In this document: positions 9,591 to 50,858 of the stretch, piece after piece | How the letters are laid out: every line of letters begins with the position of its first letter | How positions within the stretch are numbered: the first letter of the stretch is position 1 | Assembly (NCBI GenBank): GCA_003971905.1 | Contig: RSEE01000013.1 | Coordinates: forward strand, 124,001-188,000 | DNA: 64,000 nucleotides | Direction of reading: 5' to 3' | Source of the DNA: Moniliella sp. 'wahieum' | Taxonomy: Eukaryota | The notes under the pieces: model-generated | What the model was told of the DNA's origin: nothing | Seen by the model: only the letters and a program-made list of their open reading frames with translations | The model's database searches: none | Program-made: the position numbers and the translations under genes

Positions 9591-12500
9591 TTAGAACACA
9601 CCCCCAACCATTCATTCGCATTCCCATGCCTTGCATAGGCATTCTCGTAAGCTGTGGTACTAATCCCGTTGGAGCAGCGGTGATGAGACGAGGACCCATA
9701 CTGGCGCCGGGACCAAGGATGGGCATATTGCCATCCTCCTCTTCCTTTTGGGCACTCTTGCCTGCAGACCAGCCAACTGCTTGGTCAAGTCCTTGAGCAG
9801 CGTGTTGTGCGTCGCCGTCTTTTGGACCATGTATGGCTGCACAAAGTCTGAAGGAATTCCCTTCCGCCAACGCATTTCCTGAACATAATCATCCTCCAGC
9901 AGCCACTCGCAAGCATAGAGCATAGCCGCCGTTGCCTCCCAATTGCCGAGGGAGACAATGTAGTCGAACAAAGACTTGGCCACCTGGCTGTTGTTTGACT
10001 CGCTCGCCGTCGCGATTGCATCTTTCAGTAGACGGTCCCGCTGTGACAGGGCAATCGATCATCCCACAACTTGAGCCGATTGTAGAGGTAGACGGCGATC
10101 CGACGAAATTCAAGCAGTTCCGACTTCTCTAGGCGGCGTGCGAGTTCAATCATGCCAAACGATTCGACTGTGCTGAGCAGAGAACGGAGCTGGGCATAAT
10201 CTTCCTCCTCAATCAGCAGATCAAACACGGCTTCGTTCACTTCGGGGATGTCGAGTTTGATCCCGGAAAGGAGAAATCCCGAAGCGAGAGGGAACTGATC
10301 CGCCTTTTTCAGCATCCGCACCACACGGCCTTGGTCCAGTCGCTTAGTCGAGCCCAGAGTAATTAGAAGGTCGTTCAGACGAAGAGGATGCTGCCGGAGG
10401 TAGAAATTGATAGCACGATAAAAGATCTCAACGTTGGACACGCGTGTGATCAAGTCTTTGAACCCTTCGTGCGTCAGGTCCTCCCATACCACCACTCGAT
10501 CCATCGCCATCATCGCTGCCTCGTCGTTCTCCGAATCTTTGGTTAAGCAGAAGGCGGCTTCGGGGTAGAGGGCGTACTGCTCACACATACGCGCCACGGG
10601 GGGAAGGTTGATCCGGGACCAATGAAGTTTAAGGTACTCCATCAGCTTAACTGGCTGGTACTTGGCTAGGCTCTGAGCGCATAATGTGAAGAGAGCTTTG
10701 CTAGCGCTCTCTAGGCCCAGCCCCGCCTGGAGGAGGTCGATCAGGTCATCAAACAGTCCCAAGCCTCGTATGCACGAGTTAGAGCGCGCAGCTCCTCTGC
10801 ATGGCCCACGACAGCCAGGCCAGCAATCTGTGCGAGTTTGTATTCGCCCTTCTTGAGGCAAGCAGCGTGCACCTGCTTCCACACGGCCGTATTGCCTGCC
10901 TTGCGTGCCGCTTCGACCGCCGTTGGTAGTCACCAAGGAAAACAAGGGTAGTGGCCAAGCGGGCATAGTTGGACACGCTAGTGAATAGCATCTTTGCTGC
11001 CTCATAGAGAGCATCATTGAAGCACTTCTCCCCCACCGACAGCAGGTCCGCTACATTGGTCATGTTCAAGAACTCTTCCATATCCGAAAGTCGGTTCGAC
11101 TTGGCCAAGCAGTAGGCATATTCTGTGTCGATGAGCGGCTCGCGGGCTTTCTTGCGGGCCATCTGGAGGAACCGAATCAACTCCTCCTCCCTTCCCGCAC
11201 GCTCGGCGACCTCGATCACCTCGCTAAAATGAGACGGTCTTCCGCCCGAATGAACGAGTCAATGGCGTCCTTAACCCGCAGTCCGTCCAGCTGGGCTTTG
11301 GCCAGGCGAGACCAAAGCTCAGGCTGGTCGAGCTTGTGGCAAAGACCGCGCGGTCTATCGACACGATGTGCTCGACCAACACGTTCATAGCGTCCAACGG
11401 CGCTGGGCCTTCTGATAGATCTTGAGAGCCTCTTCGTACAGACCATTGTCGATAGTAATTTTGGCAATTTCATCTTCGTCGTACTCTTGGAGACGCTCGA
11501 TCAGGCTCATGACCTTACCTTGTCTGTCCGTACGGCGGTAAGAAGAAGGAGGTTCTGCAGGGAACGGTTGTCATGAAAGCCGAGGGCTCCAGGATCTTTC
11601 TAGTAGCTCAATCAGCTCATGAGGCAAATCGGCCGCCATAAATGCCTTGACCGTCACTGAAACGTCCTCGGGGTTGGTTGACTCTGGCACGGCCGTCGCA
11701 ACGACCTGGTCGATCAGATGGCGGCGGTGCACGTTCTCCGACGTGAGCACTTGGTCCCAGAGTGCTAGGTTCCGACGGAGTACGAGGTACCGAGCCTGGT
11801 GTTTAACATCCTGTTCTCATTGGTAACGCGAACCAGATCCTCATCGCAAAAGCCCTTGGCATAAGCAATGTAGGCCAAGAATGGGTCTCGCTTCTCAGAG
11901 TAGCTACCGATCAACTTGGGGTCATAGAGGGAGTTCTCTTTCAGGAATTGTTCGGGGTTGTGGTTCGTGTCAATGTAGATCTTGGCCAATGCGTTGTACA
12001 ACGCTTGGTCCGTTTTCCCCGCCGTGACGCGGTTTCGATCCAGGGCAGGATGAGCTTGAGGCGATTGCGCTTCTCCACTTCGCCAACGAGGTCGTCGACG
12101 GAGAAGTGGCCCGTGACAGAGGCCAGCAAGTTCTTGATCACCCCCTCATCAGTCAACGTCTAGAAGAGCCCCAATGACTTCGGGTGTGCGTTCCGAATTA
12201 ACCCGTTGAACATATGTCCCATGAACTGGGGCATCATTTCTGATACAAGTAGAGCACCAGGTCATGAACATAGTCGAACCGGTCGCATACAATAATGAGA
12301 GGCAGTTGGTCTTGGAGCTTGGCCTCTTTGAGGAAATTTTTGACCTTTTCGGGATTGTAGTAGTTGGACTCGCGTACGACGCGCTCCACCTCGCGGATTT
12401 GACCTGTGCGAGTAGCAGCTGAATGTACTTGAAGTGTACCTCTGGATCTGTCGACAAGTTGACCACCGAACCAAGGTAGTAGTACAGCCCCTCGAAGCTC

Positions 12501-14644
12501 TTGAACCTTTCAAACATCTCATGAGCTTGACTGGGCCAAGGAGATCGGAGTACTTGGTTGCAATCTGCACCACGACCGCCAATTCTGGCGAATGTTGACC
12601 TTGAGCATCTCCTCCATACACTCGAAGCTCTGCTCAACTGTGAGACGACCAAAGTATTCGACAAGCCACTCCATGTTGATCTGAGGCGTTTGCACCACAA
12701 CCCGCTTAATATCACGTATGTCATCATAATGTTCAAGCGCGCGCTGAAGCAGACCTGCTTTCTCAGCCAGGTTGGCAATGCGAGGTCCATCGTAGTGGGT
12801 GAACATGTTGTTGCCCAAGATAGCGTCCAACCTGAGGCGCGTTAACTAGGTTCATCTCTAGAAGACGGGTCTGAAGGCGTCCTTGTTCGGGCTTGTTTTC
12901 CTTGAGCACATCAAGAAGGAATGAGGTTGCTTGCTGATCATGTTTTGGCCATGAAGATATCGGTCACCCGCTCCACATCGACCAAGGGGCCAGTCTCATC
13001 CTGCACCAGTCGAGGCAAACTCGGCCCCCTTTTCGGGATCACGACGAACAATGTGCTGAAGAAGCGTAGCATAGTCGGGCGTGTATCCCACTTTGCGCGA
13101 ATATAGAACAATCTTGTCCACTTGACCCAACTCGGCCATGGAGGCAACAACCTTGTTGGGTACGTTGGCCCGCAGGTAAATGCTCAGGCCAAGCTCATAT
13201 CGGCAGGACGAGCGATGTCACCCAGTTCTTCTGAACACTCAACTTTGTTCTCCTTGAGCCACTTCTCCAGCAGATGCTTGCGGCCCTGCTGAAGCACGGG
13301 ATGGGCGAGTTCAAGTGACTCGAACTTGTTCAGACTGCCACGCTCAAGGAGGATGCCAAAGTATAGGAGGATGGGGCTTAGGGTTCCGTGCTGGGTTGGG
13401 ACCTGCTTGAACCTGGCAATCGTTTCGGGTGTGCGAAGAATGCCACGCGGGCTGTTGGCTGCAGTTTTGGCGGCCTCCCCGAATTGGCCGGAGGCGCACA
13501 AATTGTTAAACTGCTGAAGGTAGAGGTCATCTGCTCCAGGGAGGTTGCCCGAGAGGTCAACTTGAATGCGAGCTGGGTATTGTTGAGCATGTTGAGCGTG
13601 TAAGGCACCAGCGTGTTCTCGTCAACCGCGACCGACAACACCTGACCTTGCGATTGACGGCAATTATACCGCTCATCGACTCGTATGGCGTCGAGTGAAG
13701 ATAGTCTCACCAGAGATGCGGTTCATGTAGATGCAGGTGCCTGTTTCGAGGTCGTAGAGGTGTACAAAGCCGTACTTGGTGATCAAGTAGATGATCCCAA
13801 ACCGCTTGCTGATCTGCATGGTTACAGGAAGTCATTGGCCGCCTCGGGGGAAAGAAGACATCGACGGCCCTCTTAGAGAAAGCAGGCTGGCCTTGCTTGT
13901 GGTCGATCTCCACAATATGGAGACGGGCACCCGTGGCAGTTCGAACCGAAAAGGTGAAGAGCTTGTAGGGTGTAGAAGCACATCCGTCGTAAGCTCGGCA
14001 AAGGCGACAGCGTGGCCCTCGATCGGCTGAGAACGTTGAGGCGCTTGTTGTAAGCTGGATGCTACCCTTGATCTTGAAGCCGCCAGGAACGGTGTTGCCT
14101 GAGATCCCAACGAGAGCCATCCATTCGCCATCGGGCGTAGCACGGTAATTGATGATCTGGGAGCCCACGAGTGAGGAATGGCGGTCGAAGACCTTGGTCG
14201 GGTCACCTCAATGTCCATGGGCCAATGGTACACAGCGTGGGCGGTAATGAGGCCGAGGTGGACTCGTTATCCAGATCCAGTACACCACGTCTTCGTTCAT
14301 GGTATGACTCTTGACCTTGGTCTTGGCCTCAAGGCTAAATATCTGAAGCTGACGGCCAGCCTTGAGCGAGGACGCGCTGGGTAGGGTGCATGATGGCTGA
14401 GTCGGCTGAGATGGGTCGGCGGAGGCTGCGAAGCAACAGGAAGGAGATTAGCTCGTGAAGGGGAAGAAAGGAGCTACGCACACATTGCTCACGTTGTTGA
14501 GGTCCACAATGACGACGTGACCATCTTCGCGGACACATACATAATTCTCGACTCGAGGTGACCGAGCAAATGAGATGGCTGTGGGCGGGATACCCAGGCT
14601 GGTGAGCCGAACGTGCTCCGAAAGACGATGGGCTTGTCGGCCAT
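9591..14644 (-). CDS. CHC1: Clathrin heavy chain (heavily frameshifted in assembly)
   Basis: Starts [17 protein letters not shown]. Hallmarks: [106 protein letters not shown]. One intron near the 5' end; about 5 kb. Confidence 0.97.
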
Positions 14645-36946: not shown

Positions 36947-37033
36947 GGTGCTATGGTGTAGTGGTCATCACGTCTCCTTTACAGTCTGACTGAGAAACGG
37001 AGAAGGTCCGCGGTTCGAACCCGCGTCGCGCCA
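36947..37033 (+). tRNA. tRNA-Val(TAC) with 14-nt intron
   Basis: GGTGCTA acceptor (one mismatch), TGGTGTAGTGGT A-box, anticodon stem TCTCC/GGAGA with TT-TAC-A, intron 36984-36997, GGTTCGAACCC B-box, TTTTTT Pol III terminator at about 37035. Confidence 0.92.
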
Positions 37034-42964: not shown

Positions 42965-43061
42965 TGACGAGAGTGGGATTCGAACCCACGCCCCGGAGGA
43001 CTGCGGTTAGACCACCATAGGTGCCTTAACACAGCGCGTTAGACCACTTCGCTATCTCGCC
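42965..43061 (-). tRNA. tRNA-Leu(AAG) with about 17-nt intron
   Basis: Reverse complement GGCGAGA TA GCGAAGTGGTCTAACGC G CTGTG TT-AAG-G [CACCTATGGTGGTCTAA] C CGCAG, extended variable arm, GTGGG TTCGAAT CCCAC TCTCGTC A, then TTTTT terminator. Confidence 0.92.
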
Positions 43062-43730: not shown

Positions 43731-44427
43731 ATCGTCAAAAGAGCATACGATTCTCCATCCCCCTTTGCATTTCCTTACCTGGAGGCTAGGGCATCTAATC
43801 CTTCCCCCTCATGATTCTCCCCGGAGTCGACCTCGATTTGGCCGTGTACCGGCCCCTGCATTCTGCAGTTATGGCCACCCCTGCTGCACCCAGCACAAAA
43901 CCACCTGCTTTGTGGCCTGACTCGGTGGGTGTTCCACTCAGTATGGTCCGGCTTGGTGAGCGCCTCGCCCATGCCCCCTGTACGTTGTGTGATGAGGCGT
44001 TGTAATTCGAATCGCTGTTGCGACGAGCCCTGGTTCCGCTCTAGAACAAATAGTCCAGTCCGGATTCGCCTTTAAGCTTGACGAGCAGGCAAGACATATG
44101 AGACTAAGCCGAACGTACTGAGCCCTCTTGCCCTTGTACGCTCTTGGGAAAATGTCCTACACTCGCTGGCGCCAAGCAGATGAGGATGAGAGATGGATGA
44201 GACAGGAACGCCTATCCGTTTTCCCAAGCAAAGGCACGGTGGCGCGGTCACGTGCGGGGATGGGCGTGGGGTTAGTGGCGCAGTGCCAGGATGCGCCACC
44301 TGCTCGCCCGCGCACGGCCGCCTACTTTTTAAGCCCCTGCTAGCCCCTGCTTTTGCCCGGCCGTTTTGCTGGCCCCACCACACGCCTTCTCCCCCCCTCT
44401 CCCACCCTTCGCTGCCTCCACCACACC

Positions 44428-45940
44428 ATGGGCCGCGAGATTATTACCTTCAGTGTTGGCCAGGCCGGCACCCAAGTCGGCACCGAATTCTGGCAAACCC
44501 TTCTTGCCGAGCACGGACTGGATATTGAGGGCCACTATGGGGCCACTCGGACCACGAGCTGAGCAAGGTGGGCGTTTTTTGAGTCGGCGTCTGACAACAG
44601 TACGTTCCCGCTCCATCACGGTTGATTTGGAGCCGGGCACAATCGATGTGGTGCGGGCGGGCCGTCTGGGCCATCTGTTCCGCCCCGACTCTTTGCTGTC
44701 GGGCAGTTCGGGCGCCGGGAACAGCTTTGCCAAGGGCTATTATACCGAAGGTACGTTGTCCCCTTTCTTGGGACCAATTCCAAAATACTGACTCGAATTC
44801 ACCGCAGGGCCGAACTGATCGATTCCATCATGGATGTTGCCCGTAAGGAGGCTGAGAAGACGGATGTGTTGCAAGGCTTCCAGCTCCTCCACAGTCTCGG
44901 GGGAGGAACGGGGTCGGGGTTGGGAACCAACTTACTCACAAAATTACGGAAGAGTACCGGATCGCACTCTTTCGTCCTGGTCGGTGCTGCCGAGTCCCAA
45001 AGTGAGCGATGTGGTGGTGGAACCGTACAATGCGACGTTGAGTTTCCATCAACTTGTGGAGAATGCCGACTTGACGTTCTGTTTGGACAACGAAGCGTTG
45101 TTTGACATCTGCATGAAGACCCTTCGCATCCGCGACCCCACCACCAGCGAACTGAACAAGTGATTGCCAAGGCCATGTCAGGTGTGTCAACAACGCTGCG
45201 CTTTCCTGGACAACTCAACTCGGATCTGCGCAAGCTTGGGGTCAACATGGTGCCTTTCCCTCGTCTTCACTTCTTCACCGTTGGCTATGCGCCTCTGGTC
45301 TCGATGGGATCTAAGGCCTATACCAATCTCAAAGTCGCTGAGCTGGTGCAGCAGGGCCTTGCTCAAGGCAACACTATGGCAGCGGTTGATGCTCGCTGTA
45401 CGTTCCTCTCTCCCTCCCTCTTCCTTTGTCGTGTTTTGCTCCTCCGTGCTCATCACTGACTCCTGTGGTATTTCCTTCCCCATTTCAGTGGGTAAATATC
45501 TCACGATTGGAGCCAACTTCCGTGGCAAGACGATCACGAGCAAAGATGTGGAGGATGAAATGTTCCAAGTCCAGCAAAAGAACGGGGCCGGGTTTGTCGA
45601 TTGGATCCCTCAAAACATTACCTCCTCCCTTTGCGATGTGCCCCCCGTCGACTCCCCTGTCAGCGCCACCTTTATCTCCAACACGACGGCAGTACAGGAA
45701 CTGTTTAAGCGAACCCAAGTCCAGTTTGCCGCCATGTTCCGTCGTCGGGCCTTCCTTCACTGGTACACGGCCGAGGGCATGGACGAGATGGAGTTCACCG
45801 AGGCCGAGTCGAACCTGATGGACCTGGTCTCAGAGTACCAGCAGTACCAAGAAGCTGGTGTTGACGAGGATGAGGTGTTGGAGGAGGGATACGAGGAGGA
45901 CTACCCCGACCACGATGCTGAGTATGATCATGCAGAGTGA
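44428..45940 (+). CDS. Beta-tubulin, divergent paralog
   Basis: [91 protein letters not shown] (beta-specific); introns 44751-44807 and 45398-45488. Confidence 0.93.
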
Positions 45941-50463: not shown

Positions 50464-50858
50464 ATGTCCAAGTACGTCGTCTCCGTTCTACTTCCTGGGT
50501 ACGGTATACTTACACCTTTCTTGTCAGACACAACCCCGACTTGGTCATGTGCCGCAAGATGGCCGGCGTATCAATTGGACGACTGTGCGAGAAATGCGAT
50601 GGCAAATGCCCCGTGTGCGATTCGCTGGTTCGGCCCTCGGTTGCCGCGCACGTCTGTGACGAATGCAGTTTTGGCACATACGCTGACAAGTGCCTGATTT
50701 GTGGTTCGGCGGCCGTGTCCGACGCCTATTACTGCGCCGAATGCGTCCGGCTGGAAAAGGATCGCGATGGTTGTCCCAAGATTGTCAACTTGGGCACCTC
50801 CCGCGTTGACCAGTTTTACCAACGCAAAGCACAAAAGACCAGTTTCCATCGTGGGTGA
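50464..50858 (+). CDS. RDS3: SF3b subunit Rds3/PHF5A
   Basis: [77 protein letters not shown]; intron 50472-50527; no frameshift. Confidence 0.97.

Follow-up and report, generated by a model that had tools for sequence, protein, structure and literature searches.

The PHF5A/Rds3 gene of a basidiomycete fungus, found in the 64-kb stretch of DNA that was analysed here (the window), encodes leucine (CTG) at position 36, where this SF3b subunit normally carries tyrosine and where mutation confers resistance to SF3b modulators. We consider it probable that Leu36 is an old and tolerated replacement in a fast-evolving Rds3 and that it plausibly weakens inhibitor binding; its function, age and effect are what we infer from the sequence. 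For the pladienolide, herboxidiene and spliceostatin class of molecules, which are under study as anticancer drugs and as a bioherbicide lead, no resistance site outside SF3B1 is better known than Tyr36 of PHF5A. Natural variants at position 36 reveal which pocket shapes evolution has tolerated without breaking splicing, and they could flag naturally insensitive organisms and so have a bearing on the question of inhibitor-driven evolution raised by Hunter et al. 2024 (PMC10798247). Taken alone, Leu36 of the window is one more example of natural PHF5A variation at position 36, a kind of variation already known, and its value lies in the Y36L allele itself and in the pointer it gives to variation at residues 26, 36 and 38.

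A PHF5A/Rds3 gene with an intact reading frame

The gene lies on the forward strand in two exons. Its features, and the codons discussed below, are the following.

50464-50858, + strand: PHF5A/Rds3 gene, two exons, 339 nt (112 codons plus TGA), intact frame
50464-50471, + strand: exon 1, 8 nt (ATG plus 5 nt), holding codons 1-2 and two bases of codon 3
50472-50527, + strand: intron of 56 nt, GTACGT...CAG, predicted from the sequence
50528-50858, + strand: exon 2, starting with the third base of codon 3, ending with the TGA at 50856-50858 and holding the entire PHF5 domain
50595-50597, + strand: codon 26, TGC (Cys), the zinc-finger cysteine alkylated by spliceostatin-type epoxides, kept here (homologs Cys 236 of 254, Asp 16, His 2)
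50625-50627, + strand: codon 36, CTG (Leu), usually Tyr, aligned without gaps under human Tyr36
50631-50633, + strand: codon 38, CGG (Arg), a pocket residue, kept here (Arg in 249 of 254 homologs)
50640-50651, + strand: codons 41-44, encoding V-A-A-H in place of the T-L-V-R of homologs; rare residues are densest here, just past the pocket loop (Ala42 in 0 of 254 homologs)

The intron is predicted because its excision restores the frame and the conserved MSKH start: joining exon 1 to exon 2 gives M-S-K-H-N-P, the conserved N-terminus of fungal homologs. The intron also lies at a conserved position. The translation of exon 2 (P0001, 109 amino acids) matches the Pfam PHF5 family (PF03660) with 155.9 bits against a cut-off of 26.7 and covers profile positions 4-103 of 104. 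It aligns with solved human PHF5A chains over 100-101 residues without a gap (E 1.3e-47 to 2e-42) and with the yeast Rds3 chain at E 1.9e-37.

Cysteine is present at all twelve conserved columns (11, 23, 26, 30, 33, 46, 49, 58, 61, 72, 75 and 85), each of which is cysteine in 93-100% of 254 homologs. We take these twelve columns to be the zinc ligands of the PHF5A zinc knots. For Cys26 this role comes from Cretu et al. 2021. The pocket residues Lys25, Cys26, Lys29, Val37 and Arg38 are all retained. By family match the gene is PHF5A/Rds3/Ini1, the SF3b subunit of the U2 snRNP, and the name given to it in the original prediction stands on the PF03660 score and on matches to human PHF5A chains at the level of E 1e-47. 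The further claim that CTG occupies residue 36 of a gene free of frameshifts agrees with the intact 112-codon frame and the ungapped human alignment. A structure prediction of the protein made with a 40-row alignment was too poor for use (mean pLDDT 53.6, pTM 0.41).

Position 36 among PHF5 homologs

Leu36 sits in the motif C-D-S-x-V-R-P, and the residues around it (D34, S35, V37, R38 and P39) are exactly conserved and in frame. We tabulated position 36 in three samples, none selected by the residue found there: 254 other PHF5 proteins, for which the best 120 of 1153 homologs were supplemented from the best 150 of 1211 representatives; the 80 highest-ranking of 528 confirmed metagenome loci; and 45 further proteins from a search seeded with the Acaromyces ingoldii protein. 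The 254 proteins have Tyr in 239 cases (94%), Leu in 9, Phe in 5 and Trp in 1, and the metagenome loci have Tyr in 79 and Phe in 1. Among the 45 there are 40 with Tyr and one each with Phe, His and Met, together with one two-domain protein that has Leu in both domains and one protein missed by the search pattern, whose printed stretch has Tyr.

Tyr36 had been described as conserved at the outset. The column is indeed normally Tyr, and its conservation is strong enough that Leu is not a chance state, but it is not invariant, and Leu is the commonest replacement in the 254-protein sample. The spread of residues in that sample also means that membership of PF03660 is independent of Tyr36, the usual family feature that is replaced by Leu (CTG) in the window protein.

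An alignment of Rds3 across fungi had been suggested with the original prediction as a way to map Leu36; it and the accompanying searches found this residue in Acaromyces ingoldii, in plant copies (Theobroma, Cinchona, Oxalis, Punica, Salix/Populus and Gossypium) and in protist-like sequences. Phe36 is held by three Cutaneotrichosporon species, Thalassiosirales diatoms and Prasinoderma; His36 by C. elegans, C. briggsae, C. brenneri, C. tropicalis and one further Caenorhabditis, by Vanrija pseudolonga and by a Gossypium raimondii copy; and Met36 by a Fragaria copy. His, Met and Val at this position came only from later or variant-directed sequence fetches and lie outside the 254-protein sample. 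Phe, His and Leu can be reached from Tyr by single-base steps (TAY-TTY-CTY and TAY-CAY-CTY), and these paths fit the observed spectrum of replacements.

The PHF5 domain at the end of a 158-residue protein labelled as from the fern Adiantum nelumboides (P0452) matches that of Acaromyces ingoldii exactly, also at Leu36; the protein is probably from a fungal contig inside the plant assembly.

Leu36 as a probable tolerated replacement

The yeast Bact structure shows Tyr36 in direct contact with the branch adenosine, the Tyr hydroxyl bonded to SF3B1 Lys1071 and the residue packed on Arg1075 (Teng et al. 2017, PMC5458519). The diene tail that is common to all three natural-product classes lies against Tyr36 (Finci et al. 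2018, PMC5859971). Resistance to E7107 is 100- to 5000-fold for Y36C/S/A/E/R and 5- to 10-fold for Y36F/W (PMC5458519, PMC5859971), and Cretu et al. 2021 found Y36A protective against spliceostatin A and sudemycin D6 as well. The accounts of Teng et al. and Finci et al. thus agree with the original prediction that Tyr36 lines the branch-adenosine pocket and that Y36C is resistant. In human cells Y36C is reported to leave basal splicing unharmed (Teng et al. 2017, PMC5458519), and rice carrying it is reported to look normal and to have more splicing changes than wild type. One further source that came up for Tyr36, PMC5435868, concerns Tyr363 of another protein and is irrelevant.

The human laboratory alleles Y36C/S/A/E/R resemble the window allele in affecting the same residue and losing its aromatic side chain. 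They differ in having been selected or engineered and measured, in a series without Leu, whereas Leu36 of the window is natural, apparently old and known from sequence alone. Leu falls outside the tested series of Teng et al. 2017 (PMC5458519), whose main text has 0 occurrences of Y36L. In the literature searched, Y36L appears with PHF5A only in a study that docked spliceostatin C to an Arabidopsis homology model. Its Supplementary Table 5 gives -63.12 kcal/mol for wild type, -60.14 for Y36L, -65.44 for Y36W, -59.18 for Y36R, -55.46 for Y36C, -53.01 for Y36A and -44.78 for Y36E. The predicted loss for Y36L would be small and close to that for Y36R, which is weak evidence either way.

Our preferred reading is that Tyr36 changed to Leu long ago in a fast-evolving basidiomycete lineage, as an exchange of one hydrophobic residue for another and one of about 15 rare changes in the protein. 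Leu36 would retain a bulky apolar wall for the branch adenosine, and it would lose both the hydroxyl that bonds SF3B1 Lys1071 and the aromatic ring on which pladienolide, herboxidiene and spliceostatin-type molecules stack with their diene. Since bulk and hydrophobicity are kept while ring and hydroxyl are lost, splicing should work and modulator binding should be somewhat weakened. Basic splicing would then continue with Leu36, binding of the bacterial inhibitors would probably be reduced, possibly only slightly, and for the resistance of the organism its SF3B1 pocket would matter no less than Leu36. The distance of CTG from TAY, three base steps, fits an old change. The recurrence of Leu36 in proteins that are otherwise canonical, such as that of Acaromyces ingoldii, appears to support a tolerated replacement, and by analogy so would the compatibility of Tyr36 loss with splicing. 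The long branch of the window protein counts against this reading in so far as it could also be that of a relaxed or redundant copy.

Resistance to SF3b inhibitors

The original prediction was that this fungus may be naturally resistant to bacterial toxins that target SF3b. By analogy such resistance is plausible, because laboratory work indicates that the aromatic ring is needed for strong modulator binding. SF3b-binding polyketides are made by soil and plant-surface bacteria (Streptomyces, Burkholderia, Pseudomonas), and Leu36 could have been fixed as protection from them, perhaps together with changes in the SF3B1 pocket. We hold such adaptive target-site resistance to be possible though unlikely. 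In its favour, the change falls at the strongest PHF5A resistance site, where non-aromatic residues give 100- to 5000-fold effects, but Leu itself lies outside the residues tested, and its docking loss of about 3 kcal/mol is less than that of Cys or Ala. The pocket residues Cys26, Lys29 and Arg38 are unchanged in the window protein. With 14 further rare changes in the protein, residue 36 need not have been under special selection. Residues 26, 36 and 38 do vary among eukaryotes in lineage-specific blocks, a pattern that looks to be beyond random drift at near-invariant columns, and a role for bacterial splicing inhibitors in shaping fungal spliceosomes is explicitly proposed by Hunter et al. 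2024 (PMC10798247).

In Caenorhabditis PHF-5, position 36 is naturally something other than Tyr across the lineage, and the organism is uninhibited by SF3b drugs; the difference is that His36 retains a ring and Leu36 of the window does not. His36 of C. elegans is already published, and these worms are reported to become sensitive once SF3B1 (SFTB-1) alone is humanized (Serrat et al. 2019, PMC6830814), which counts against a strong claim of resistance through residue 36. S. cerevisiae, a fungus with a pocket unlike the human one and against which bacterial SF3b inhibitors are ineffective, is described as pladienolide-resistant through Hsh155, with an Rds3 pocket face the same as in human (Hunter et al. 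2024, PMC10798247). It follows that the SF3B1 half of the pocket can determine whether an organism is sensitive. In S. cerevisiae the differences lie in 14 Hsh155 residues, whereas in the window fungus the difference is on the Rds3 face. A Pfam scan of 40 large ORFs in the window gave no match to SF3B1, the partner whose HEAT repeats 15-17 adjoin PHF5A in SF3b and whose human pocket residues include K1071, R1074, R1075 and V1078.

A wider version of the same idea is that Leu36 is one case of lineage-wide swaps at Cys26, Tyr36 and Arg38 that give natural target-site resistance in many eukaryote lineages, and this we regard as rather unlikely. If it were true, Leu36 and the rebuilt patch at 41-44 would point to a spliceosome that is hard to poison, with matching changes in the SF3B1 pocket. 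As a lead, the broader variation at residues 26, 36 and 38 seems more interesting than Leu36 itself, and from the sequences compared it appears to fit the idea of Hunter et al. 2024 (PMC10798247).

Residues 26, 36 and 38 in other eukaryotes

The epoxides of spliceostatin and sudemycin alkylate the zinc-finger residue Cys26, and human cells with C26H are insensitive to spliceostatin A (Cretu et al. 2021). Cys26 is naturally replaced in 18 of the 254 homologs (Asp in 16, His in 2). Asp26 occurs in all 17 sequences inspected of the Ustilago/Sporisorium/Moesziomyces/Pseudozyma type (smuts; P0408-P0410, P0515-P0528) and also in the oomycetes Phytophthora, Peronospora, Aphanomyces and Nothophytophthora (P0429, P0434, P0437, P0499). 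Such replacements may make their bearers naturally immune to SF3b inhibitors of the covalent kind; Cretu et al. 2021 do not mention them in the passages on conservation, on species and on C26H.

Several rosid plants have PHF5 copies with drug-contact residues changed together (P0315, P0321, P0322, P0376-P0378, P0407, P0440, P0470, P0472-P0478, P0480, P0481). Salix combines Asp26, Leu36 and His38; Populus copies have Asp26 and Leu36 with either Arg38 or His38; Gossypium has His26 with Leu36 or His36 and His38; and Fragaria has Met36, Malus His38 and Punica Leu36. Phe36 is lineage-wide in some groups. Diatoms of the Thalassiosirales type (P0254, P0393-P0406) have it with Asn38, in 10 of 10 pattern-matched cluster members, and it is also present in three Cutaneotrichosporon species (P0078, P0456, P0462, P0465) and in Prasinoderma (P0496, P0501, P0502).

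Divergence and placement of the window protein

The window PHF5A/Rds3 evolves fast. The best identity of its exon-2 translation is 73% among the best 120 of 1153 homologs, 72% among the 150 representatives and 73% among the 80 metagenome loci, and its end branch in the Rds3 tree is 0.53 against a median of 0.067. Fifteen of its residues are rare at columns that are at least 85% conserved in the 254 homologs (N5, M14, V17, L36, V41, A42, A43, H44, S63, A65, V66, V76, T93, V96 and Q98). We considered a compensated frameshift as the source of the patch at 41-44; the other two frames of 50640-50651, read by eye, lack the usual motif, and so there is no hidden frameshift here.

The organism is clearly a basidiomycete, at phylum level only, as the neighbours of its clathrin and its Rds3 differ in subphylum. 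In a quick 27-row tree a close relative of its clathrin heavy chain (P0122), used as a proxy, falls inside Basidiomycota beside Malassezia with support 100. The Rds3 tree excludes the window protein from the Ascomycota clade (99/99) and joins it to P0004 (82/86), whose cluster includes Mixia osmundae.

Acaromyces ingoldii, whose Rds3/Ini1 (XP_025377273.1; P0015) shares Leu36 and the same local C-D-S-L-V-R-P, is the only named fungus with Leu36 among the matches listed in the searches seeded with P0001 and with the Acaromyces protein. The Acaromyces protein is otherwise canonical, with 88-93% identity to its Tyr36 relatives; for the window protein, identity to the same group is 64-69%. In an AU test with column 36 left out, holding the window protein and Acaromyces together was 7.7 log-likelihood units worse (p-AU 0.019), in a comparison where the group was named after the first tree had been seen, the alignment had about 109 columns and the window row was long-branched. 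A position of the window protein inside the Ustilaginomycotina rows was not rejected (p 0.14). The p-AU of 0.019 is suggestive of separate origins of Leu36 in the window fungus and in Acaromyces.

The long end branch and the 15 rare residues would also suit a divergent second copy or decaying paralog, with a canonical Tyr36 gene elsewhere doing the work, as plants seem to have; plant Leu36 appears to reside in extra "PHF5B-like" copies. We find this quite improbable for the window gene. Its frame is fully open despite the roughly two assembly breaks expected by chance, it keeps all of the cysteine ligand columns and most of the invariant columns, and its intron is at the conserved position and restores the MSKH start. 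A tblastn search with P0001 across the 64-kb window found only the gene itself, with no second PHF5 copy. The clathrin fragment from this genome, too, reaches only about 50% identity with the named fungi in the list, so that fast evolution is genome-wide and not particular to PHF5A/Rds3.

Assembly errors and the call of codon 36

The clathrin heavy-chain gene at about 9619-14391 (- strand) has 28 frame breaks relative to P0122, to which it is 91% identical, and lines up with it as 29 collinear pieces of high identity. The length differences at the 28 breaks are never a multiple of three: they are -1 or -2 nt in 24 cases and -4 or -5 nt in four, and there are no intron-sized gaps among the breaks against P0122. 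At the junctions inspected by eye, a homopolymer run in the window typically lacks one base, as judged by the residues of the relative. A beta-tubulin-like gene at about 44344-45940 (+ strand) is a second example of frame breaks, being spread over at least five overlapping frames; its C-terminal piece was identified by Pfam Tubulin_C and the other pieces were recognised by eye among the ORFs.

The assembly is unpolished and has run-length errors, a signature that affects every gene call in the window. At 28 breaks per 4.8 kb about 2 would be expected in 339 nt, with a probability of about 0.14 for an intact frame, and the intact Rds3 frame is unremarkable. Errors of the run-length type cannot make CTG from TAY, and the clathrin comparison is one that cannot detect substitution errors. 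Single substitutions of CTG yield L, M, V, P, Q or R, and never Y, F or W. CTG differs from TAC and TAT at all three bases, and the earlier judgement that a single sequencing error is unlikely holds good.

Reassignment of CTG, as in the CTG clade, was ruled out: the same gene uses CTG for Leu22, in a column that is 95% Leu, and for Leu59 and Leu78, and the use at the conserved Leu22 means that the standard code applies.

The observation of Leu36 is confirmed as real, its codon being known from one error-rich assembly. A sequencing or assembly artefact hiding a Tyr codon would draw on the unpolished state of the assembly, with its 28 clathrin frame breaks and split beta-tubulin-like gene, but it is very improbable indeed, as none of the 28 breaks is a clean gain or loss of a codon, those examined closely are one base short in a run, CTG is three bases from TAC or TAT with no single change leading to Tyr, Phe or Trp, and the codons for D34, S35, V37, R38 and P39 are conserved and in frame.

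Branch-point choice and RNA genes in the window

The original prediction had also raised altered branch-point selection, which the data do not support. The intron of the PHF5A/Rds3 gene has an ordinary candidate branch site of the yUnAy type, and Y36C is harmless to basal human splicing.

50509-50513, + strand: candidate branch site CTTAC, a yUnAy-type motif match; the candidate branch A, at 50512, precedes the intron end by 15 nt

Branch sites in the window were surveyed by a crude scan for candidates of the form GTRNGT...CTNAY...YAG. The share of motif copies inside such candidates was 0.13 for CTGAC, 0.13 for CTAAT and 0.11 for CTAAC, and 0.04-0.08 for the other five, a weak preference. An Rfam search over the window returned two tRNA matches only and nothing for U2 snRNA. 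These tRNA genes, at 36947-37033 (+ strand) and 42965-43061 (- strand), are 87 and 97 nt long against a model of 71 positions and are therefore probably intron-bearing; one of the two is tRNA-Lys (TTT), and the second was detected by Rfam alone.
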